From Candidatus Omnitrophota bacterium (lineage in GTDB: Bacteria; Omnitrophota; Gorgyraeia; Duberdicusellales; 4484-171): a stretch of 64,000 nucleotides of DNA. Of the stretch, positions 6,173-51,187 are shown in pieces. The stretch spans positions 1,508 to 65,507 of the forward strand of contig JAIPHA010000004.1 of the NCBI GenBank assembly GCA_021735445.1. The letters are read 5' to 3'. The notes below the pieces were generated by a model that did not search any database, had not been told where the DNA came from, and saw only the letters and a list, made by a program, of their open reading frames with translations. The stretch's first letter is position 1. Each line of letters starts with the position of its first letter. Position numbers and translations under genes: made by a program.

Positions 6173-7156
6173 TTATTCTACGAATTTACCGATTTTTCTA
6201 AAGCGCTGATACCTCTCCTCGATCAACTGATCTGGATTTAGCTCGTCAAGTTGGGAAAGATTTTCTAATAGGAATTTTTTAAGATTAGCTGCCGATTTAT
6301 CTGGATTCCAATGGGCGCCTCCTTCTGCTTCGGGAATAATTTGATCCACAATGCCTAAATCCAAAAGCTCCGGCGCAGTCAACTTTAAAACCCTGGCTGC
6401 TTCTTCTCTTTTTGCCGCATCCTTCCAAAGAATAGCCGCGCACCCTTCCGGCGATATCACAGAATAGTAGCCGTATTGAGTAATAAGCACCTTATCGCCA
6501 ACCCCTATCCCTAAAGCCCCGCCGCTTCCACCTTCTCCGATCACTGTAACTATAATCGGAATTTTTAAGCTAAACATATCCCTAATATTTTCGGCGATAG
6601 CTTGAGCCTGGCCTCTTTCTTCGGCTCCAATCCCGGGATATGCCCCCGGAGTATCGATAAAACACACCAAGGGAAGCCCGAAACGCTGAGCTAATCTCAT
6701 AATCCGCATCGCTTTTCGGTAACCTTCAGGATGAGCGCAACCAAAGTTACGTTTTATATTCTCGGATGTATCCCTGCCTTTTTGATGCCCTACAAAGGCA
6801 ATTTTTTTTCCTTCTATGGTTGCAAGCCCACAAATTAAAGCTTGATCGTCTTTAAAAAATCTATCTCCTGAGAGAATAATGTAATTATCGGTTATATTTT
6901 GGAGATAATCTAAAGTGGTCGGGCGCCTGGGATGACGAGAAATTTGTACTTTTTGCCAGGGAGTAAGCTTAGAATAAATATCTTTTTTTAAACTTTTTAG
7001 TTTCTTTTCTAAATTATTGATTTCCGAAGACATTTCTACTTTTTTATCCGTAGAAAAACTTCTTAATTCTTCTATTTTTTCGGTAAGCTCGATTATAGGC
7101 TTTTCAAAATCCCAACCTTGCATCACACTCTCCTGGTTAGCTTTGCTTATGATCAA
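6173..7156 (-). CDS. accA: acetyl-CoA carboxylase carboxyltransferase alpha subunit
   Basis: 327 aa; FIDTPGAYPGIGAEERGQAQAIA motif. Confidence 0.92.
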   Translation of the reverse strand: MIISKANQESVMQGWDFEKPIIELTEKIEELRSFSTDKKVEMSSEINNLEKKLKSLKKDIYSKLTPWQKVQISRHPRRPTTLDYLQNITDNYIILSGDRFFKDDQALICGLATIEGKKIAFVGHQKGRDTSENIKRNFGCAHPEGYRKAMRIMRLAQRFGLPLVCFIDTPGAYPGIGAEERGQAQAIAENIRDMFSLKIPIIVTVIGEGGSGGALGIGVGDKVLITQYGYYSVISPEGCAAILWKDAAKREEAARVLKLTAPELLDLGIVDQIIPEAEGGAHWNPDKSAANLKKFLLENLSQLDELNPDQLIEERYQRFRKIGKFVE

Positions 7157-10357: not shown

Positions 10358-10480
10358 GGTAAGTTTATCTTCAATCTTTTAGTTTATCAAACCAGCAATA
10401 GTTGTGTTTTATCTCCAAAGTCTTTGGGAAGAACTATGCACGCATAAACAAACCAGCTTGCCTTCGGCAAGAAGTTCTTG

Positions 10481-12876: not shown

Positions 12877-13698
12877 TTAGCCAATCCGTTTTATAATCCT
12901 TTCGAAATCATTCAAGCTGTAATAATGCAGAATAATTTTCCCTCTTTTATTTTTTGAGCCGGCAATCTTTACCTTTGTCCCTAATTTTTTTTGCAGCTGT
13001 TCCTCGGCTTCTTCAATAAAGGGGTCGGCCTTTGTTTTTTTATTTTTCCGGAAAGCTTGTTTTTCCACATCTCTTACCGTAAGGCCTTTTTCTAAAATTT
13101 TATAAAATATTTTTTCCTGTTGAATTTTACTTTTAAAAGAAAGTATCGTCCTTGCCTGGCTCCGGTTAATAAGATTTTTTTTCAAAGCATCTTTAACCTT
13201 TTCGGGTAGCTTAAGCAAACGCATTGTATTTAAGACGGTTGTTTTATCTTTGCTGACAAATTGAGCAATTTCGTCTAAAGAAAAATTAAATTCATCTTTG
13301 AGGCGTTGAAGGGCTTGAGCCTCTTCAAGAGGATTAAGATTTTTCCGTTGTAAATTTTCAACTATCGCAGCGATAAAAGAATCTTTATTATCTAGATCCC
13401 TGACTATTGCAGGTATCTCCTTGATGCCCAGTAACTTAGCCGCCTCTAACCTTCTCCCGCCGGCTACAACTTCATATCTTCCCTCTTTAGTATCCCGAGC
13501 TAAAATCGGTTGAATGAAACCCTTTTCTTTAATCGAACGGGTTAATTCGGCTAAATCCTTCTGGTTCATCTCTTTACGCGGCTGAAATTTATTCGGATCA
13601 ACCCTTTCTAGGGGAAGATAGACAAACTGATCTCCACCAGAAATTTTCTTTTTGGGAATTAAGGCATCTAATCCTTTTCCTAACACTCTTTTACCCAT
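12877..13698 (-). CDS. parB: chromosome partitioning protein ParB
   Basis: 273 aa; ParB-box VVAGGRRLEAAKLLG; HTH region. Confidence 0.92.
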   Translation of the reverse strand: MGKRVLGKGLDALIPKKKISGGDQFVYLPLERVDPNKFQPRKEMNQKDLAELTRSIKEKGFIQPILARDTKEGRYEVVAGGRRLEAAKLLGIKEIPAIVRDLDNKDSFIAAIVENLQRKNLNPLEEAQALQRLKDEFNFSLDEIAQFVSKDKTTVLNTMRLLKLPEKVKDALKKNLINRSQARTILSFKSKIQQEKIFYKILEKGLTVRDVEKQAFRKNKKTKADPFIEEAEEQLQKKLGTKVKIAGSKNKRGKIILHYYSLNDFERIIKRIG

Positions 13699-14491: not shown

Positions 14492-14602
14492 ATTTTTCTA
14501 TTCTAATACTATCTCAGTTAAATTGCAACTGTTTTTATCCCTGCCTTACCTAAAAATTAACAGGCAAAATGAAAATCTTCAATAGAATCAAGGGGTTCTG
14601 GC

Positions 14603-15093
14603 GTTTTCACGTGGAAATGGCTCCACAACAAACATAAAAGAGCCATTTCCACGTGGACTTTTCCCGCTAACCATTTAAGACAAAACAACCTTAATGTCAT
14701 TCTGAGGCGAAGCCGAAGAATCTCAATGAGGCTTATTCGCCAGAGGCGGATGTAGCCGAATTGATCCTGAACGAAGTGAAAGATCTAAAACCATTGCAGA
14801 GATCCTTCGTCGCTCCCGCAGCTTTTGAGCCCGGAGATCCTCAGGATGACATCAGAGAAAGACTGCCTCGCTTTATTTGCTTCGCTCATTTCGCTCGCAA
14901 TGACAATAATAGAACATCTTTCCCGTCTTGGAAATAAAGATTGATACATTTTAATAGTCAAAATGAAAATCGTTAATAAAATCAGGGGGTTCTGGCGTTT
15001 TCACGTGCACTTTTCGCATTCACCAATCGAGCGGAAAAGTCCACGTGGAAACCATCTAGAAGCTAAAGAGGGAGATGGTTTTCACGTGAAAAC
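14603..15093. promoter_or_regulatory. cluster of five parS-like CACGTG-centred 16-mers
   Basis: Sites at 14603-14618, 14645-14660, 14997-15012, 15037-15052 and 15078-15093; the core resembles the parS consensus TGTTNCACGTGAAACA; directly upstream of parAB. Confidence 0.65.
15078..15093. promoter_or_regulatory. best parS-like site, a perfect 16-bp palindrome GTTTTCACGTGAAAAC
   Basis: The central 12 bp TTTCACGTGAAA are identical to the parS consensus core. Confidence 0.65.
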
Positions 15094-15141
15094 GCAGAAA
15101 GGCCTTGAAAAATAAGCGTCTTTGGGTTTTGGCTGTTTTTT

Positions 15142-16592: not shown

Positions 16593-16799
16593 TTACCTTA
16601 CAGGGTCAAATCCACCTTGTGAAAAGGGGTTACAACGTAAAATTCGCAACAGACTTAACCATAGAGCTTTTGAGAAAGGGCGCTTTTTGAAAGCTTGTTT
16701 TGCATACTCCGAGCAAGTAGGAGTATAAATGCACGAACCAGGAACAAGCCTGAAAAAGTTTTGATATATTTTAATAAAAAAAAGGGCAACCCGGTTCAT
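16593..16799 (-). CDS. yidD: membrane protein insertion efficiency factor YidD
   Basis: 68 aa; CIYTPTCSEYAKQA...GGFDPV. Confidence 0.9.
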   Translation of the reverse strand: MNRVALFFIKIYQNFFRLVPGSCIYTPTCSEYAKQAFKKRPFSKALWLSLLRILRCNPFSQGGFDPVR

Positions 16800-16933
16800 A
16801 AAGAGATCTTGTGCCGCCCTTTTTTCCGGCGCTGATTTATAATCTTTTTGCCGTTTTTAGAGCTCATTCTTTTGCGAAAACCGTGTTTTCTCTTGCCTTT
16901 AAGTTTAGTGGGTGTTTTGAGATTTTTTTTCAT
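16796..16933 (-). CDS. rpmH: 50S ribosomal protein L34 (not in the ORF track, 45 aa)
   Basis: Translates MKKNLKTPTKLKGKRKHGFRKRMSSKNGKKIINQRRKKGRHKISL; its stop overlaps the yidD ATG (ATGA). Confidence 0.9.
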   Translation of the reverse strand: MKKNLKTPTKLKGKRKHGFRKRMSSKNGKKIINQRRKKGRHKISL

Positions 16934-16937
16934 GTCT

Positions 16938-17200
16938 TTGTAATTGGTTATCTATTTTTTTATCAAAAATCAGCTATGCTTATATAGCTCATCGCTGTTT
17001 GTGAGTCTAATACATTACATGGATGTGATAGATTCTCTTAGGTTTAAGCAAGAGAATTATCCGGCTGCGCCGGATATCACATACATATTTTGTAATTGAT
17101 TATCTATCTTTATTATCAAAAATAAACTGCGTTTATCTAGCTCATCGCTGTTTGTGAGCCTGATGCATTATCTTACCAGCCTAATACATTATTAGGTAAG
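16938..17200. repeat. intergenic structured repeat, family B (two tandem units plus a three-helix core)
   Basis: Units at 16938-17017 and 17090-17170 are about 80% identical; homologous in inverted orientation to 46208-46389. Confidence 0.75.
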
Positions 17201-17321
17201 TTGAAATTGTAGCATAAAATATTTGGGTGTCAACCAGAAAAAAGCTTAGGTAAATGCAAAACTGTTGTCAACAAAAATGTTACATTTGCCATTACAATCT
17301 TTTTACTCGTGTTGGGTACGT

Positions 17322-18579
17322 GTTGACTCATAAGTAAATGTTACCGAAATGGTTTTTAAGCATAAAGAGCATTTTTTCTGTTTACACTAAATATTTTCTT
17401 AAGTTTTTTCTCCATAGCACGTCTTAATTGAAAGGGGTTAAGCCCCTTCATTTGTTCTTTGAGATTTCGTTTTGCAGAAGCCGGCACATGTTTGGATTCT
17501 AAAACTCTTCTGTAAGGAGTCTTTGGCTTATCATAACGTTTAACGGTTTTAGAGGCAATCCTTTTTTTGGAAATTAGCTTTACCGAAGGACAGAAGAAGT
17601 TATGATACAGGCGCCACTCGGAAGTATACAAATCATTCATCAAAGGTACAACATTCGGATTATCTAATCGAATATAACCCAGCCATTGCCTTATGTGAGT
17701 CCAATTCTTCTGTTCTATGTGGCAGTTATCCTGTTTCTGGTAAGATCTGCTTCTGGTAAACTGAATAGGCATTTTTCTTTGGGTAAAATGCCTAAACAGA
17801 TGCCAGTTTAGGAATTCACTGCCGTTGTCAGAATCAAAGCCAAGAATCGAAAAAGGCAAGCTGTCTTCAACATCTTTGATTTGTCCTAAAACGCCTCTTT
17901 CGCCTTTGCCCCAGACAGCCCGTTGTTCGCTCCAGCCGGTAGCTATATCTACAAAATCGACTGTATAAGCATACATTCCTTCTAAAGAACCGCCGCAATG
18001 GGCAACAGTATCAGCTTCTAGAAAGCCTGGTTTGTTTTCATTCCATTGTTCGGTCTTAACCGGAATATGTTGCTTGAGCAAAGTGCCGGGTTTAGTAGTA
18101 GCCCTGCCGCGGGTTTTGTATCTAATTTTTATGTTTTCAAGCAGCCGGTCAATGGTAGCAGGAGATATCTTAAATAAAGCTTTGGTTGCCTCTAAGGATA
18201 GAGGGCTGTATTCTTGGGCATAGTGCGGCAGCCATAAAGGCAGCATAGCTTTAAGTAGCTTAGAACAAGGCAGGTTTGCTGCTAGCCAAATACGCTTTAG
18301 AGGCTCTATAACAGAATCTTTATTGTACATAGACGGCCTGCCCCGTTTTTTTGGTTTGGGTTTTGTAAAGCGTTTATAATTATTAAGTAGCCGTATAGCA
18401 TGTTTTCTATGATGGTTGCAATTAATGCAAAACTCATTAAGAATAATAGTTTTTTCTTTTTTAGAAGCTTTTTTATAACGCAAATAAATTTTTTCAAGAT
18501 ATTCCATTTTTGCTCCGGGACTCATAATATACCTCCTTTTCTAGAGGTATATTTTCGGTAACATTAATTATGAGTCAAC
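17322..18579 (-). mobile_element. insertion sequence with rve (DDE) transposase, ISNCY/IS481-like
   Basis: About 27-bp terminal inverted repeats (gttgactcataagtaaatgttaccgaaa at 17322-17349; tttcggtaacattaattatgagtcaac at 18552-18579); extra subterminal copies at about 17264-17290 and 18601-18627. Confidence 0.8.
17356..18525 (-). CDS. DDE transposase/integrase (rve superfamily)
   Basis: 389 aa; N-terminal HTH-like region; catalytic triad context EADTV ... DSDNGSEF ... HIEQKNW. Confidence 0.85.
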   Translation of the reverse strand: MSPGAKMEYLEKIYLRYKKASKKEKTIILNEFCINCNHHRKHAIRLLNNYKRFTKPKPKKRGRPSMYNKDSVIEPLKRIWLAANLPCSKLLKAMLPLWLPHYAQEYSPLSLEATKALFKISPATIDRLLENIKIRYKTRGRATTKPGTLLKQHIPVKTEQWNENKPGFLEADTVAHCGGSLEGMYAYTVDFVDIATGWSEQRAVWGKGERGVLGQIKDVEDSLPFSILGFDSDNGSEFLNWHLFRHFTQRKMPIQFTRSRSYQKQDNCHIEQKNWTHIRQWLGYIRLDNPNVVPLMNDLYTSEWRLYHNFFCPSVKLISKKRIASKTVKRYDKPKTPYRRVLESKHVPASAKRNLKEQMKGLNPFQLRRAMEKKLKKIFSVNRKNALYA

Positions 18580-18643
18580 GAAACAATTGAGAATTAATTT
18601 GAGTAACATTTAATATGAGTCAATTCGGGGTAAGTAAAAAAAG

Positions 18644-35538: not shown

Positions 35539-35586
35539 GGAGTATGAGCCAAGTGAACATTTTCACTTATCACTTAACCCTAAGGT

Positions 35587-35649
35587 ATGCCTGAGTTACC
35601 AGAAGTTGTATCCAAAAAGAATAAAACAAAGGATAAAAGTTATGCCTGA
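35587..35649 (+). other. 20-codon upstream ORF that repeats the first 7 codons of fpg
   Basis: The 21-mer atgcctgagttaccagaagtt occurs at 35587-35607 and 35642-35662; the uORF stop TGA overlaps the fpg start region. Confidence 0.4.
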
Positions 35650-36442
35650 GTTACCAGAAGTTGAGACAATAAAAAGAGAACTAGAGAAAAAACTTTTAGA
35701 TAAAAAAATTATTGGCTTAAAAGTTAATAACCCTAAAGTCATCAAAGAGCCGGCACCTTCTGAATTCAAAAATCAAATTATTAACGAAAAGATTAAAAAG
35801 ATAACAAGAAGAGGCAAGCTCCTTATTATTGAATTAAAAAAAGATAAGTTTTTAATTATTCACCTAAGGATAACCGGGTGGCTTAGATATGGGAAAGAAG
35901 AGACTAAAGCAAGGGTGTTGTTTAAGCTTTCAGACGGAAATTTTCTTAATTACATGGACTCTCGCCTTCTCGGGCATCTACGGCTGAGAGAGGCATACAA
36001 AGACTTAAATTTTTTAAAAAAACTGGGCCCGGAGATTTTCGAATTAACCGCTAAACAATTCAAGCAAATGTTAAAGCAAAAGAAGGGAAACATTAAGGCT
36101 TTAATCATGAATCAAAGTTTTATCGCCGGGGTCGGGAATATTTATGCTCAAGAAGCTTTATTTTTAGCTAAGATAGATCCGCGCCGAACTGCACCGAGTT
36201 TAACCGTCAAAGAAAAGGATAAGCTTTATAAAGAACTTAAGGCAGTATTAGCTGAGGCGATAGAATACAGAGGATCTTCGGTTGATTCTTACAGGAATTT
36301 AGAAGGCCAAGCCGGAGGCATGGAAAAAAGGCTTAAAGTCTATGGGAAAAAAAATCAACCATGCCCCACCTGTAAGAAACTACTTAAAAAAACAACTATA
36401 GCAGGAAGAGGAACTTGTTTTTGCCCTAATTGCCAAAAATGA
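35642..36442 (+). CDS. mutM: formamidopyrimidine-DNA glycosylase
   Basis: MPELPEVE N-terminus (catalytic Pro2), H2TH, C-terminal zinc finger CPTC...CPNC. Confidence 0.92.
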   Translation: MPELPEVETIKRELEKKLLDKKIIGLKVNNPKVIKEPAPSEFKNQIINEKIKKITRRGKLLIIELKKDKFLIIHLRITGWLRYGKEETKARVLFKLSDGNFLNYMDSRLLGHLRLREAYKDLNFLKKLGPEIFELTAKQFKQMLKQKKGNIKALIMNQSFIAGVGNIYAQEALFLAKIDPRRTAPSLTVKEKDKLYKELKAVLAEAIEYRGSSVDSYRNLEGQAGGMEKRLKVYGKKNQPCPTCKKLLKKTTIAGRGTCFCPNCQK

Positions 36443-45631: not shown

Positions 45632-46222
45632 ATGGGTCAGGTTAGAATAACCAAGCAAGAGCTAAGAAAACAAAAAGATTCCCTGGCAAGGTTTAGGCGT
45701 TACCTGCCTACCCTGCAGCTTAAAAAAAAGCAATTGCAGCAACAGATTGTAAAGGTCCACCAGCAAATCGATAAAGTATCCAAGGAAGAAGAGGACTTCA
45801 GAAACGAAGTTATTAACTGGGTGGATTTGTTCGCTCAGCAGAATTCAATCAGAGAAGTTTTAAGCTTGAAGGCTATAAAAACCGGGCGGGGGAATGTGGC
45901 CGGTGTTGATTTGCCTATATTTGATAGAGTTGATTTCGAATTAAAAAGTTACAATCTGGTGGAAACTCCTCTTTGGCTTGATTCTGGTATTGAAGCTGTT
46001 AAAAAGGTAATTAACTATAAGGCAGAATTGATTGTGTTGCATAGGCAACTGGATGCTTTAAAAGAAGAGCTGAGGCTTACTAATCAAAGGGTTAATCTAT
46101 TTGAAAAGGTTAAGATTCCCGAATCAGAAGGCAATATCCGGATGATCCAAATTTACTTGGGAGAAAGAAGGACAGCCGCTGTAGTTAGAGGTAAAATCGC
46201 CAAAGCCAAAATAGATAAATAA
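45632..46222 (+). CDS. atpD: V-type ATP synthase subunit D
   Basis: 196 aa; TKQELRKQKDSLARFRRYLPTLQLKK typical N-terminus. Confidence 0.88.
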   Translation: MGQVRITKQELRKQKDSLARFRRYLPTLQLKKKQLQQQIVKVHQQIDKVSKEEEDFRNEVINWVDLFAQQNSIREVLSLKAIKTGRGNVAGVDLPIFDRVDFELKSYNLVETPLWLDSGIEAVKKVINYKAELIVLHRQLDALKEELRLTNQRVNLFEKVKIPESEGNIRMIQIYLGERRTAAVVRGKIAKAKIDK

Positions 46223-46389
46223 TCAATTACAAGTATGTATACGCTTTTTTGCCAAAGGCAAAACATTCTCCGGATATAACCTAAGAGAATACAGCGTATC
46301 CATATAATGTATTAGACTCACGAATTACGATGAACTTTTTAATGGCTGTTTTACTTTTGTTAAAATAGATAAATAATCAATTACAAGAT
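46208..46389. repeat. family B structured repeat between atpD and atpI
   Basis: A perfect 26-bp direct repeat aaaatagataaataatcaattacaag (46208-46233, 46362-46387) flanks a 128-bp core homologous to 16938-17100 (inverted). Confidence 0.8.
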
Positions 46390-48159
46390 ATGATTGTAAA
46401 GATGCGCAAACTCACAATTTTAGTATCAAAGACAAGCATTGATTCAGCTTTACATGATCTGCGTGAGCTAGGGGTGTTTCATGTATCTCATTTAAGAAAA
46501 CCCCATGCCGATTATATAGACACGGTAAGGAAAAGGTTGTCAAGATTAAATAAAGTTTTGGATATAGTAGGGGAATCAAAAAAGCAAAAAAAACTTAGCA
46601 GAGAAGAGCTAATTTCTGCTTCTAAAGAAATTGTGGGTTTGGTTCAAGAAAGAAGCAAACTTAAAAGCCGACTGGCGGAATTAAGCCAAAAAACCGCCTG
46701 GTTTGGGCAATGGGGAGATATTTCAAAAAAGGATTTGGAAAAACTGGCGGATAAAAATATTTTCATCAAATTATATTTTTGCAGCGAAAAAGAATTCAAA
46801 AAGTTAAACAAGGATAAATTAGTTTACATTGTTGGGCGAAAAGGATCTAATTTACGCTTAATCCATATATCTACAAGCAAAAATGAAGAGCTAAAGTTTC
46901 AGCGGGACGAAGTTCCTCAGGAGAGTTTGAGCTCACTTAATAAAGAAATTAATTATATTCAACAGAGCAGGAAAGCAATCGAGGGAAAAATAAGTTCATT
47001 TTCAGTTTACCGGGATTGTTTTACCGGGTACAAGAAGAAATTGCTTAATAAGCTTGAGTTTATAAAAGTGAAATTTGGAATGGAAGGCAGCGAAGCTTTA
47101 GCCTGGCTCCAGGGGTTTTGCCCCCTGGATTCAGTAAAAAAAATAAAAAAAACCGCTCAAAAAAATGGTTGGGCAATAGCCGTTGAGAAACCTGATAACC
47201 CAAGAGAAGTACCTACTTTAATCAGAAATCCAAAGTGGGTCGAAATTATAAAACCGGTTTTTAATTTTATGGGTACTTTGCCCGGTTATAAGGAGTATGA
47301 TATCAGTTTTTGGTTTTTATTATTTTTTAGCCTATTTTTTGCTATGCTGGTGGGAGACGCAGGGTATGGGGTTATTTTTCTTACAGCTACTTATTTGGCC
47401 AGAAGGAAATTCAAACAAGCTCCGGCTGCGCCCTTTTTTTTAATCTACAGCTTAAGCTTTGCAACCGTTGTTTGGGGCGCTTTATCGGGTAATTGGTTCG
47501 GGGTAGAAGCTGTCACTAAATTGCCTTTTTTTAATTTTTTAGTTGTTGACCGGATTAACAGTTTTGCAAAAACTAATCAAAATTTTATGATTTATTTTTG
47601 TTTTGTAATCGGGGTGGTGCATTTATCGATAGCCCATTTAATAAAAGCTTTTCGTTATTTGAATTCTTTGAAAGTTTTGGCGGAAATTGGCTGGGTTTGT
47701 ATTTTGTGGACAGCCTTTTTTGTGGCCAGCCAGTTGCTTGTGGGCAAACCGGCTCCGGATTTTATCTCAGGGTTAGGTATAGCCGGTATAACCGCCGTTA
47801 TTTTATTCTCTAACTTTCAAAAGAATATTTTAAAAGGCGCCCTTTCGACTTTAGGGACTTTACCTTTAGACGTAATCAGCTCTTTTACCGATATTATTTC
47901 TTACCTGCGCCTTTTTGCTGTAGGGTACGCAACGCTTGCTGTTGCCACCGCTTTTAATACAATGGCAACAAGTACGGGCCTGGGGGGATTCTTAGGCGGA
48001 GTTGCGGCCGCAATAATTCTTTTTCTCGGGCATAGTTTAAATATTTTGTTATGTTTGATGTCGGTTGTAGTTCACGGAATCAGATTGAATTTACTTGAAT
48101 TTTCCGGGCAATTAGGAATGGAGTGGTCCGGCAAAGAGTACCGGCCATTCCGGGAGTAA
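46390..48159 (+). CDS. atpI: V-type ATP synthase subunit I (a-subunit)
   Basis: 589 aa; cytoplasmic N-domain plus a multi-TM C-domain with the conserved Arg region LRLFAVGYA. Confidence 0.9.
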   Translation: MIVKMRKLTILVSKTSIDSALHDLRELGVFHVSHLRKPHADYIDTVRKRLSRLNKVLDIVGESKKQKKLSREELISASKEIVGLVQERSKLKSRLAELSQKTAWFGQWGDISKKDLEKLADKNIFIKLYFCSEKEFKKLNKDKLVYIVGRKGSNLRLIHISTSKNEELKFQRDEVPQESLSSLNKEINYIQQSRKAIEGKISSFSVYRDCFTGYKKKLLNKLEFIKVKFGMEGSEALAWLQGFCPLDSVKKIKKTAQKNGWAIAVEKPDNPREVPTLIRNPKWVEIIKPVFNFMGTLPGYKEYDISFWFLLFFSLFFAMLVGDAGYGVIFLTATYLARRKFKQAPAAPFFLIYSLSFATVVWGALSGNWFGVEAVTKLPFFNFLVVDRINSFAKTNQNFMIYFCFVIGVVHLSIAHLIKAFRYLNSLKVLAEIGWVCILWTAFFVASQLLVGKPAPDFISGLGIAGITAVILFSNFQKNILKGALSTLGTLPLDVISSFTDIISYLRLFAVGYATLAVATAFNTMATSTGLGGFLGGVAAAIILFLGHSLNILLCLMSVVVHGIRLNLLEFSGQLGMEWSGKEYRPFRE

Positions 48160-48162
48160 AAA

Positions 48163-48360
48163 GAAACGAAAGATACAAGAGACAAGAAACAATGACCAAA
48201 CAAGATACAATATCCAGATTCAAATCCTTCGACTGTGCTCAGGATGGTTCGAAGGATGGTGAGCAGAGTCGAACCATAACCAAATATTTGGTTTGATTAT
48301 TGGATATTGGAATTTGGGATTTGTTTGTATCTTGTGTCTTGGTTATTGGTTATTTCGATT
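48163..48360. repeat. family A intergenic element (CAA-heptamer arm / TTG-heptamer arm), copy 1
   Basis: Shares aaacgaaagatacaaga, caagatacaata, tattggatattgga, tttgtttgtatcttgt and ttggttattggttatttc with 50983-51158. Confidence 0.8.
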
Positions 48361-48387
48361 ATTAACGTATTATATGAGGAGGTTGAA

Positions 48388-49087: not shown

Positions 49088-49268
49088 TGTTTTTTTGTTC
49101 ATAATGTTTATAGCTGGGAACACAGCAGAATGGCTAAAAATTTCCTCCCAGCGCTTCGCGGCTCGTCAATTTTTTATACGCCATTTTCCTGTTAAAATCA
49201 TAAAGCGTTCAAAAAAGCTGTTTCTTTTTTATTCGTAACAATGAAATCTAACTGATATTTTAAAGATT

Positions 49269-50978
49269 ATGGATTTAAAAACTTTACGACATTCATGTTC
49301 TCATGTTCTAGCTTCAGCGGTTAAGAAGCTCTATCCGGAGGCGAAATTAGGCATAGGTCCTGCTATCGAAGAAGGGTTTTACTATGATTTTGATATTCCC
49401 GGAGGCTTAAGCGAAGAAGATTTGCCAAAAATTGAAGAGCTAATGGAAGAAGAGATAAGGTCAGCGCTACCATTTGCTCAAAAAGATTTAGGCAAAGAAG
49501 AAGCTATAGATTTTTTTAAGCAAAAAGGAGAAATTTATAAGATAGAATTGATTAAAGATTTAGAAAAAGACCGGGTTTCAACTTTTCAGCATAATGATTT
49601 TATAGATTTATGCAAAGGGCCTCATTTAAAAGATACAGGGCCTTTAAAAAATTTTAAATTACTTTCGGTATCAGGGGCTTATTGGCGGGGAAGCCAAGAA
49701 AACGCTCAGCTAAGCCGGGTCTATGGAACGGTTTTTCCCGACAGAAAAAGTTTAAAAAAATATCTAAACCGGTTAGAAGAGGCAAAAAAAAGAGATCATC
49801 GCAAGTTAGGCAAGGAATTAGGCCTATTTGATATATATCCGGAACAAGCCGGGGCAGGATTAGTTTTTTATCTGCCTAACGGTGCGATTTTAAGAAAAAT
49901 TATCATCGATTGGGAGATAAACGAACACTTCAAAAGAGGGTATCAAATGATAAATACGCCTCATATTATGGATAAAAATCTTTGGGAAAAAAGCGGCCAC
50001 CTTGACCATTACCAGGAGTATATGTATCCGATAGAAAAAGCCAAACAAGAGTTTATCTTAAAACCTATGAATTGCCCCGGGCATATTTTAGTTTATAAAT
50101 CAAAGCTCCACAGCTTTAGAGACCTTCCTTTTAGATTGTTTGAACTAGGGACGGTCTACCGGTTCGAAAAAAGCGGAGTTTTACATGGTTTGCTTCGCTT
50201 GCGGGGCTTTACCCAAGATGACGCGCATATTTTTTGTAAAAAAGAAGACCTTTATTCAGAAATAGAAGGAGTAATTGATTTTGTTAAATCTACCATGGAT
50301 AAGTTTGGGTTTAAAGACTATAGCGCTGAATTAAGCACTCGCCCGGATAAATTTATCGGAAAATTAAAAGATTGGCAGATGGCCGAAAATATTTTAGAAG
50401 GAGTTTTAAAAGATAAAAAGCTTAACTATAAACTCAATCCCGGTGACGGAGCTTTTTATGGCCCCAAGATAGATATTATTTTAAAAGACGCGATAGGAAG
50501 GAGTTGGCAATGCGCTACTATCCAGCTTGATTATAATATTCCTGAGAGGTTCGATTTAACTTATCGTTCCAGAGAGGATAAAGATGAAAGAGTGGTTATG
50601 ATTCATCGAGTAGTTTTAGGAAGCTTGGAGAGGTTTATCGCAACGCTGGTAGAGCATTTTGCGGGGGCTTTTCCGCTCTGGCTTGCTCCCATTCAAGTTA
50701 GCGTTTTAAATATAAATAAAGATGTGGCCGATTATGCGGATAAAATAAAAGAAAGGTTGTTAGAAGAAGGCTTTAGGGCTGAATCCGACTTAAGAGAAGA
50801 GACTTTGCAAAAGAAAATCAGGGAAAAAGAGGCCCAAAAAATACCTTATATGCTTATAGTCGGCCGGCGGGAAAAAGAAGCCGGGACGGTTTCGCTGCGC
50901 CAAAGGGGAATGAAAAAAATGGGAACAAAAAAAACAGAAGAGTTGGTAAAATTTTTAAGAAAACAATCGAACAAATAG
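49269..50978 (+). CDS. thrS: threonine--tRNA ligase (no N-terminal TGS domain)
   Basis: Begins in the editing domain (RHSCSHVLA); class II motifs; 569 aa. Confidence 0.92.
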   Translation: MDLKTLRHSCSHVLASAVKKLYPEAKLGIGPAIEEGFYYDFDIPGGLSEEDLPKIEELMEEEIRSALPFAQKDLGKEEAIDFFKQKGEIYKIELIKDLEKDRVSTFQHNDFIDLCKGPHLKDTGPLKNFKLLSVSGAYWRGSQENAQLSRVYGTVFPDRKSLKKYLNRLEEAKKRDHRKLGKELGLFDIYPEQAGAGLVFYLPNGAILRKIIIDWEINEHFKRGYQMINTPHIMDKNLWEKSGHLDHYQEYMYPIEKAKQEFILKPMNCPGHILVYKSKLHSFRDLPFRLFELGTVYRFEKSGVLHGLLRLRGFTQDDAHIFCKKEDLYSEIEGVIDFVKSTMDKFGFKDYSAELSTRPDKFIGKLKDWQMAENILEGVLKDKKLNYKLNPGDGAFYGPKIDIILKDAIGRSWQCATIQLDYNIPERFDLTYRSREDKDERVVMIHRVVLGSLERFIATLVEHFAGAFPLWLAPIQVSVLNINKDVADYADKIKERLLEEGFRAESDLREETLQKKIREKEAQKIPYMLIVGRREKEAGTVSLRQRGMKKMGTKKTEELVKFLRKQSNK

Positions 50979-50982
50979 ATAA

Positions 50983-51158
50983 AAACGAAAGATACAAGAT
51001 ACAAGAAACAATAATCAAGCAAGATACAATAACCAAATTTCAATGATCAAACAAAACGATAAAGAAATATAATTTAAAAATTGATGATGTTTGGTAATTG
51101 GGTATTGGATATTGGAGTTTGTTTGTATCTTGTTTTTTGGTTATTGGTTATTTCAATT
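50983..51158. repeat. family A intergenic element, copy 2
   Basis: See 48163-48360; lies between the thrS stop and the infC RBS. Confidence 0.8.
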
Positions 51159-51187
51159 GTAAACATGTTAAAAAGGAGGCTAAATAG

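Follow-up and report, generated by a model that had tools for sequence, protein, structure and literature searches.

Short guide-bearing repeats at gene starts and tRNA loops of Omnitrophota are probably copies of a non-autonomous mobile DNA element

Introduction

The insertion sequence IS608 inserts 3' of the tetranucleotide TTAC. This target lies outside the element, and a 4-nt guide located at the foot of a hairpin reads it; changes in the guide predictably retarget insertion, and transposition proceeds without gain or loss of DNA (PMC3201880, PMC5934647, PMC5027513). Repetitive extragenic palindromes (REPs) and bacterial interspersed mosaic elements (BIMEs) are short non-coding hairpin repeats, thought to be processed as single-stranded DNA (ssDNA) by a trans-acting HUH enzyme, RAYT (TnpA-REP), with a short guide-like tetranucleotide (PMC6006769, PMC8266576). 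Here we examine a repeat, family B, that lies upstream of rpmH and of atpI in a 64,000-nt stretch of the genome of a Candidatus Omnitrophota bacterium (GenBank assembly GCA_021735445.1, contig JAIPHA010000004.1, forward-strand positions 1,508 to 65,507; hereafter the window, to which coordinates refer). We conclude that the family B repeats are probably copies of one mobile DNA element, small, non-coding and non-autonomous, in an Omnitrophota clade, and that those at rpmH and atpI are insertions, not regulatory leaders.

The likeness to the IS200/IS605 group, which includes IS608 and the palindrome-associated transposable elements (PATEs), lies in the lack of terminal inverted repeats, in strand-specific insertion 3' of a tetranucleotide outside the element, and in the complementarity of that tetranucleotide to a 4-nt guide at the foot of folded DNA, with guide variants that match their targets (a match read here from sequence only). 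With REPs the element shares its shortness, its lack of coding capacity and its hairpins. It departs from the classical definition of miniature inverted-repeat transposable elements, derivatives of DDE transposons, as it has no terminal inverted repeats and duplicates 18–75 nt of its target, not a fixed length.

Results

Architecture of the copies at rpmH and atpI

To judge by its AtpD and YidC homologues, the window is of Omnitrophota origin. An earlier note on this DNA, made from the letters alone, had aligned the regions upstream of rpmH and atpI, and blastn confirms the alignment (72% over ~180 nt). The same order recurs at rpmH (17200–16931, minus strand) and at atpI (46208–46392): an AT-rich tail with an ATG, a three-helix core, the sequence CCAT.TAATGTATTAGACTCAC...CGATGA, and the tail again, now with the real start codon. 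The 17-nt head has four matches with up to three mismatches in the window, against 0.07 expected. Folded on either strand, both cores give three-way junctions (z-scores of -5.3 to -6.2). Stems P1 and P2 lie where the note had placed them, differing in sequence between the two copies while keeping their pairing; the P1 bases that it listed are correct, but the full stem runs further, across the junction into the preceding ATG.

At rpmH, the element proper (17083–16987, minus strand) begins with a single T (17083), followed by P1 (17082–17075 / 17030–17023), which encloses P2 (TCCGGC-GCA-GCCGGA, 17074–17060) and P3 (17057–17032). A mismatched C (17022) and the 4-nt guide CATG (17021–17018) complete the core (17083–17018), and the head, TAATGTATTAGACTCAC...GATGAGC, occupies 17017–16987. 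To the left stands a decoy leader copy (17139–17084, with its ATG at 17086–17084; repeat family D8, 84% identity), which is the duplicated target, and to the right the functional leader (16986–16934) with the start codon of rpmH (16933–16931). Older head copies that have no core lie at 17191–17140, a partial one, TAATGTATTAGGCT, at 17191–17178 and TAATGCATCAGGCTCAC...GATGAGC at 17170–17140. What had been described as a third, partial unit is a full second copy of head and leader plus an extra head fragment. Upstream of the whole array lies a promoter of sigma-70 type close to the consensus (TTGACA-16-TACAAT, extended by a TG; 17233–17206, minus strand), which is conserved in all relatives. Because the GC-skew minimum of the window falls at ~16 kb, and because rpmH-yidD-yidC-parAB run leftward and dnaA-dnaN-gyrBA rightward, we place this copy beside the replication origin.

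The atpI copy is located within the V-ATPase operon. It is preceded by a 30-nt left copy of the atpD-atpI junction (46208–46237), again the duplicated target, which holds the last atpD codons and stop, a spacer and a decoy ATG. The element proper (46238–46335) consists of a T (46238), P1 (46239–46245 / 46293–46299), P2 (TTTTGCC-AAA-GGCAAAA, 46247–46263), P3 (46265–46290), a mismatched C (46300) and the guide CATA (46301–46304), the core spanning 46238–46304 and the head 46305–46335. At its distal end, a spacer of 26 nt (46336–46361) shares homology with the beginning of the rpmH leader, being donor flank brought along with the element. The right junction copy (46362–46392), which ends in the real atpI ATG (46390–46392), is identical to the uninterrupted junction of a relative, L214 (L plus a number designates a relative's metagenome-assembled genome, MAG, or metagenome contig).

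Across all copies, the element measures ~60–125 nt and comprises one pyrimidine, a P1 of 7–8 bp enclosing the P2 hairpin and a variable third arm, a mismatched C and the 4-nt guide. Family B copies add a conserved 30-nt head (TAATGTATTAGRCTCACAAA..GATGR), their core and TAATGTATTAG head together amounting to roughly 95 nt of non-coding DNA. Only one end is structured: the three-way junction is proximal to the insertion junction, while the distal end varies in sequence and length and, in L003, meets the repeat at an 8-nt microhomology (CGATGGAC). The two ends of the rpmH and atpI copies share no terminal inverted repeat, and the units of 140–190 nt contain no open reading frame (ORF).

A constrained structure that points to DNA

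Sixteen copies were put in register by hand as N-padded rows, MAFFT having left the P1 strands out of register. In these rows, fitted to the structure, 221 of 221 P1/P2 cells are Watson-Crick pairs and 12 of the 16 pairs have changed on both sides; none of 500 shuffles reaches the observed pairing values, and sliding the 3' partner leaves 28–44% paired. The claim of a structured, non-random element with covarying stems is therefore upheld. When a 7-bp stem closing a hairpin and followed by CC was used as the query of a structure scan, 20 matches were obtained in ~270 kb of Omnitrophota sequence versus 1.4 in shuffles, and about 14 of the 20 are real elements by inspection.

Not one of the 221 helix cells is a G-U pair, whereas structured RNAs usually contain many. 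The P2 loops are GNA triloops in 12 of 16 copies by our own count, mostly closed by C-G, and GNA triloops closed by C-G are a signature of unusually stable DNA mini-hairpins, not of RNA. For these two reasons we read the structure as DNA; structure at the level of RNA is not supported, and both observations point to DNA. Searches of Rfam with the element sequences gave no family at the gathering threshold and only noise matches at E up to 10.

Several other identities were considered and rejected. A hammerhead-type core (CUGANGA/GAAA) or a tRNA does not account for the core, as the junction strands carry no conserved nucleotides by eye and ARAGORN called no tRNA. A leader peptide or other small ORF is not in evidence either: the decoy ORFs differ between copies, and the 26-aa antisense ORFs share only those bases that are conserved as DNA. 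Finally, ATAATGTAT resembles the centre of the Escherichia coli dif site, but it has no XerD-type arm and no inverted arms.

Filled and empty sites in relatives

A scan of one genome per species gave, among the matches listed, true copies only in Omnitrophota MAGs. In all, at least ~19 copies at 10 sites were available, all on MAG or metagenome contigs, several of which terminate within the element. Two metagenome scans and one viral scan returned only chance matches to the 17-mer and no true copies. Family B, with an identical head, is found at rpmH, atpI, dnaG, two tRNA-Ser genes and tRNA-Pro. Copies occupy rpmH in L032, L037/L076, L039, L224–227, L228/229 and L230/231. The same head and core type lie just downstream of tRNA-Ser(GGA), tRNA-Ser(GCT) and tRNA-Pro, in antisense orientation, each after a partial copy of the tRNA 3' end.

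At four loci, sites that are filled in some genomes are empty in others. The atpI site is empty in L214, L219 and L221 and filled in the window and in L223, more distant relatives having short, different junctions; in L214, whose AtpD is 90% identical, the junction reads ...GCCAAAATAGATAAATAATCAATTACAAGATATG-ATCGTA without interruption; in the window, these 30 nt stand on both sides of an insert of 124 nt. At tRNA-Val, L214, L219 and L221 are again empty, and an insert of 121 nt, alike in architecture and with nt 56–73 of the tRNA repeated on its flanks, is present in L215, L217, L211 and L212. The tRNA-Leu site is empty in L230 and L231, and L228 and L229 carry there an insert of ~62 nt between tRNA nt 13 and 14, with a ~75-nt duplication of locus-specific upstream sequence. 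The start of fpg is empty in L221, holds a full element in L219 and is decayed in the window. Taken together, these filled and empty sites indicate that insertion took place recently in terms of the history of these genomes.

The tRNA-Leu and fpg elements can both be followed in the window. At the 5' end of tRNA-Leu (10501–10345, minus strand), the same insert persists with an eroded left copy: the left duplicate (10501–10481; 8 nt of leader plus tRNA nt 1–13) is followed by a C (10480) and by a core at 10479–10427 (P1 AAGAACT / AGTTCTT; P2 CTTGCC-GAA-GGCAAG; then C and the guide CCAA), and the duplicated native upstream region extends to 10345. Part of this core is deleted in L224. At fpg (35582–35663, plus strand; repeat family D15), the duplicated start, made of a Shine-Dalgarno sequence, ATG and seven codons, surrounds a decayed element remnant (TATCC...). 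The earlier note had also pointed to a related tail before a GGDEF gene, which is real: a solo tail (AAAATAGGTATAATCAATTACAGATATG) at about 3677–3647 on the minus strand, in which ~26 of 28 bases match by eye, ends in the start codon of a GAF-GGDEF gene and has no core.

Further inserts were noticed at junctions of these kinds. The dnaG copy, in L082 (7701–7900 of JAWOBO010000001.1), is bordered on each side by the atpI-type tail. It shares 89% identity with the atpI copy of the window, the genomes being only ~77% identical; either flank has travelled from locus to locus and from genome to genome, or the repeat marks a chimeric join in the contig. In L219, the V-ATPase A subunit gene carries at its start codon an old element built in the same way (6838–6973; P1 AACCAAT/ATTGGTT, guide CATC, diverged flanking repeats), at a junction that is uninterrupted in the window, L214 and L221. 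After tRNA-Val of the window, 49089–49115 (TGTTTTTTTGTTCATAATGTTTAT) resembles the tRNA-proximal end of the L215/L211 tRNA-Val element, with no core or partial tRNA next to it, and probably represents a copy in decay. The atpD-atpI junction is occupied in L211 (10589–10721), and also in L212, L213 and L215–L218, by an unrelated insert of ~133 nt that is rich in hairpins and full of GACGA/TCGTC repeats; this insert is flanked by two copies of GGATGAGGGA, in the Shine-Dalgarno region, and a similar GACGA-rich block lies downstream of tRNA-Val, with L214 (about 13320–13400) also among the occurrences.

A fixed junction and a guide that matches the target

At all 10 independent sites, the junction falls after NNNG and the intact target continues with A. 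The T-loop targets read GATTCG^AAC, with insertion between tRNA positions 55 and 56 in four tRNAs; start-codon targets are GATATG^A and ACATG^A, the tRNA-Leu target is GTTGG^AAT, and that within fpg is AGTCG^AGA. Of all these, TTCG^A in the tRNA T-loop and TATG^A or CATG^A at start codons are the best targets.

The second strand of P1 is followed by one mismatched C and then by four bases complementary to the last four of the left flank, the target and guide pairs being TTCG / CGAA, TTTG / CAAA, TATG / CATA, TTGG / CCAA and GTCG / CGAC. Over 10 distinct combinations, 35 of 40 positions are complementary (permutation P ~1e-4); with the invariant G left aside (positions -2 to -4), the figure is 26 of 30 (P ~5e-5). 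As the guide is complementary to the end of the target, P1 continues across the junction with a single mismatch, that of the first pyrimidine against the C. Copies with identical heads bear different guides, each of which fits its own target, so to judge by these sequences the element appears to pick its targets by base pairing.

Duplication of the target in place

At each insertion, a stretch of target, 18–75 nt long and situated on the 5' side of the junction when read as the element is oriented, is present as a direct repeat on both flanks. At tRNA T-loops, the duplication measures 18, 18(–20) and 19 nt at three targets, of which tRNA-Val is filled in two lineages, and 65 nt at the fourth; elsewhere it is ~75 nt at tRNA-Leu, 23–27 nt at fpg, 30 nt at atpI, 35 nt at dnaG and ~60 nt at rpmH. 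The segment repeated is nt 56–73 in tRNA-Ser(GCT), tRNA-Pro and tRNA-Val (two lineages), and the 65-nt repeat belongs to tRNA-Ser(GGA), where in L003 it includes the tRNA trailer. Since the 65- and 75-nt repeats hold the fast-evolving trailer or spacer of the locus itself, the duplication was made in situ and not imported with the element.

These repeats rebuild the interrupted gene, whether they restore the 3' or 5' part of a tRNA, a ribosome-binding region with its ATG or, at fpg, an ATG and seven codons. The shortest of them only just suffice for this, in keeping with duplications of variable length that pass through a filter of selection. The same process explains why the module is seen twice at a fixed distance from the start codon. 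The earlier note had taken this distance as a sign of function, but the ATG is the insertion site and gets duplicated.

Element and locus have separate histories

Comparison of the rpmH loci shows that the element does not follow its host. Between the window and L228, core and head are 94.8% identical, the right leader 63% and rpmH-yidD-yidC DNA 73.6%; with L037 the values are 95.9%, 70.4% and 74.4%. With L039, the closest relative, they are 77.6%, the core being of a different type, 94.3% and 87.7%. Because the identity of the element is decoupled from host divergence, core and head are what is exchanged, the leader being part of the locus. Tandem arrays with a 153-nt period, reaching at least 2.7 units in L037, also occur at rpmH and fit repeated insertion at a regenerated target.

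Other features of the window

The surroundings of rpmH show several peculiarities. The gene is followed directly by yidD and yidC (16593–16933), with no rnpA between them, unlike the usual rpmH-rnpA order. In the promoter region (17198–17233; likewise in L032, L039, L224, L228 and L230), the GGTTGA of the -35 box can pair with a TCAACT just past the -10 box, and in part of the clade this TCAACT is followed by ..CC-NNN-head, which is the layout of the second P1 strand, CC, guide and head; the promoter may be embedded in an ancient, degenerate copy of the element. Just upstream of it, an insertion sequence with terminal inverted repeats (17241–18631), absent in L039, contains a 389-aa ORF (17356–18525, minus strand) for which no Pfam match was found at E<=0.001. 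A different insertion in L224 and L225 stops at exactly the same point (...|TTTTTTCTGGTTGACACCC), and the shared end point suggests an insertion hot spot next to the origin.

Two further groups of repeats were seen. The 650-nt non-coding gap between parA and yidC contains a 57-nt direct repeat, 89% identical (14557–14613 and 14951–15007), and an inverted copy (15079–15108), which include GGGGTTCTGGCGTTTTCACGTG; the region is rearranged in L039. A long imperfect palindrome of GTTTGATTATTGGATATTGG-type sequence occurs in two copies, 83–84% identical, after atpI (48157–48372) and after thrS (50976–51170); similar sequence is also found downstream of tRNA-Val in L219 and L221, and these palindromes may be the other repeat family of the earlier note.

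Discussion

A possible mechanism

The following mechanism would account for these observations. A trans-acting enzyme, most likely of the HUH or another ssDNA type, would read the folded three-way junction and join the 5' end of the element to a target 3'-OH positioned by the 4-nt guide, with ssDNA as the favoured intermediate. The other end of the element would not be set by the enzyme; re-priming upstream on the target, sometimes at a microhomology, would create the duplication, and only duplications sufficient to restore the gene would survive selection. A different origin of the flank, its capture by read-through to the next target-like site, was rejected: the predicted guide-matching tetranucleotide at the outer edge of the duplication was not found by eye at atpI, tRNA-Val, tRNA-Leu, tRNA-Pro or fpg. 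A nearby transposase was likewise rejected as the mobiliser, as the insertion sequence at 17241–18631 is unrelated and absent in L039, and the neighbours of the tRNA-linked copies, when checked, were housekeeping genes only.

Alternative explanations

Among other explanations, one that we hold to be unlikely is an RNA-mediated retroelement comparable to short interspersed nuclear elements (SINEs), in which a site-specific nick would prime reverse transcription of an RNA with a 3' three-way junction and variable second-strand cleavage would give duplications of variable length. The long and variable duplications of fixed polarity relative to the element, the variable distal end with its microhomology and the donor flank carried along would all suit such a process. 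The tRNA-linked copies also lie directly after N73 in the orientation of the tRNA, so that co-transcription and tRNA 3' processing could free the RNA, and the junction on the antisense strand resembles a 7-bp acceptor stem plus one purine. Eukaryotic SINEs and non-LTR (long terminal repeat) retrotransposons are similar in being non-autonomous, in having one precise and one variable end, variable and sometimes long duplications, distal microhomologies and carried donor flank, and in some association with tRNA genes. However, the Omnitrophota element has neither an A-rich tail nor an internal promoter, and its helix statistics, with no G-U pair in 221 cells and with P2 loops mostly of a triloop kind that is unusually stable in DNA, not in RNA, favour DNA over RNA. 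In an antisense RNA, moreover, the guide would be of the same sense as the target and unable to pair with it; no reverse transcriptase gene was seen, and neither ARAGORN nor Rfam gave a tRNA-like match. We know of no SINE or target-primed non-LTR element in bacteria. Reverse transcription primed by a tRNA was rejected separately, as the duplicates lack CCA save in one case, which is explicable as natively encoded CCA; some tRNA genes of these genomes do encode it.

The copies could instead be miniature integrative elements whose movement depends on a tyrosine integrase with tRNA T-loops and gene ends as targets; the element would carry its own copy of the gene end, and the repeats would be attL/attR identity blocks. 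We consider this quite improbable, notwithstanding the junction between positions 55 and 56 in four different tRNAs and the exact repeat of nt 56–73 in 4 of 5 T-loop cases; repeats from the T-loop to the 3' end are reportedly the classical signature of tRNA-targeting integrases. A left partial tRNA-Ser that has CCA after the repeat, where the resident gene has TAA, and the occurrence of the same tail before atpI, dnaG and a GGDEF gene would also agree with imported ends. Integrative elements of this kind (prophages, islands, cis-mobilizable elements or CIMEs) likewise enter T-loops, generate a repeat from the crossover to the tRNA 3' end and leave partial tRNA fragments, but they are kilobases long, encode an integrase, have one target per integrase and carry the repeat themselves. 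Here, closely related copies use ten different targets, and the duplications contain 44–75 nt of locus-specific, non-functional flank. The units of 140–190 bp, with no integrase gene, fall far below integrative elements described so far in size. Around the junction, inverted binding sites of core type were not seen, and guide-target complementarity is not a feature of att sites. Integron attC sites and the attP hairpin of CTX phage, which are recognized as folded ssDNA, likewise conserve structure while their sequence varies; they differ in being tyrosine recombinase substrates at fixed partner sites, with neither guide-target pairing nor long duplication.

A cis-regulatory leader, either a structured leader RNA or a mobile promoter-leader cassette controlling the downstream gene, was the explanation given in the earlier note. 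Its mobile cassette came near the truth, and its leader RNA did not hold, given the empty atpI, tRNA-Val, tRNA-Leu and fpg sites of close relatives: what can be absent from atpI and the tRNA sites is dispensable there. No copy needs a leader function for its explanation, and regulation of the downstream gene is decidedly unlikely on other grounds too. The note had made consistent orientation relative to genes a test of function, and copies also lie downstream of tRNA genes on the opposite strand; the atpI copy is inside an operon, where no promoter is needed; the core types at rpmH are distributed against host phylogeny; and the element has no Rfam match and no G-U pairs in its 221 helix cells. 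The TA.AAT box of the tail, proposed as a -10 element, belongs to promoter-like matches that occur at chance level, and rpmH already has its strong conserved promoter upstream. In favour of a leader, that promoter does place the core within the 5' untranslated region (UTR) of rpmH, a copy is present at rpmH in all seven lineages sampled, the stems covary, and a decoy ATG with a structure after it is reminiscent of an attenuator.

Local tandem duplication of gene starts by hairpin-induced replication slippage, with no mobile element, would explain the 153-nt period of the rpmH arrays and draw on the strong hairpins of the core, but is highly improbable when the head is identical at 17 of 17 bases and the architecture the same at unlinked loci of different genomes, element identity exceeds flank identity, and the junction motif and guide complementarity are specific.

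Strength of the mobile element interpretation

Insertion of a mobile DNA element remains the explanation that we favour, and a number of observations weigh against it. No mobilising enzyme was identified, and no circle or excision junction was seen, among the copies and neighbours examined. Orientation relative to replication is not uniform: the three window copies fit a lagging-strand-template bias (skew minimum ~16 kb), and the tRNA-Val copies of relatives would be on the other strand. The rpmH site is occupied in all seven lineages, with no empty site seen, and at rpmH alone the copy may have a secondary role for the host. Left and right leader copies differ at some rpmH loci (L228, L230), a mismatch that may be due to age, conversion or repeated insertion. 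The exact duplication of nt 56–73 in 4 of 5 T-loop cases would also be expected of an integrase-type element with its own tRNA end, and the guide could be templated from the target during insertion instead of pre-existing. The copy number is low and rests on MAG and metagenome contigs, the dnaG copy of L082 lies near a contig end, and registration of the rows by hand to the structure biases the percentage paired upward. Two differences from IS200/IS605 belong here as well: members of that group have a hairpin at each end and make no target duplication, whereas the Omnitrophota element has one three-way junction at one end and always duplicates 18–75 nt.

The element also departs from IS200/IS605 in that its guide is placed 3' of the stem, of which it is a simple extension, and its distal end is variable; no TnpA gene was found in the elements, which are devoid of ORFs, or among the neighbours checked. 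In view of the target duplication and the lack of hairpins at both ends, we do not file it under that group. REPs, for their part, are single hairpins with a conserved GTAG-type motif, present in high copy number and intergenic; neither tRNA loops nor start codons are sites of REP insertion, and REPs lack long, gene-restoring duplications. Our literature searches turned up no account of elements like those of Omnitrophota; as evidence that none exists, this is weak. It is possible, and we propose it only tentatively, that the Omnitrophota elements represent a previously undescribed class of guide-directed mobile DNA, characterized by a three-way junction with a 4-nt guide, a gene-restoring duplication and a partner that is an HUH-type or other ssDNA transferase. 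As a non-autonomous, structure-guided mobile DNA, the element has a fair chance of forming a new class once its enzyme and intermediate are known.

Implications

Annotation is at risk from these elements, since their decoy start codons, tandem 5' UTRs and partial tRNA fragments may be taken to be regulatory leaders; MAG assemblies also break at them. The copy fixed at rpmH, beside the origin, offers a handle for a search for the partner enzyme by phylogenetic profiling. The natural guides CGAA, CAAA, CATA, CATG, CCAA and CGAC match their targets, which suggests a simple, 4-nt programmable insertion signal. If our interpretation is true, the principle of transposon-directed target choice known from IS200/IS605 would hold for another architecture as well, in a phylum about which little is known, and a minimal element would enter essential genes and yet leave them working, since its insertion duplicates the end that it interrupts.

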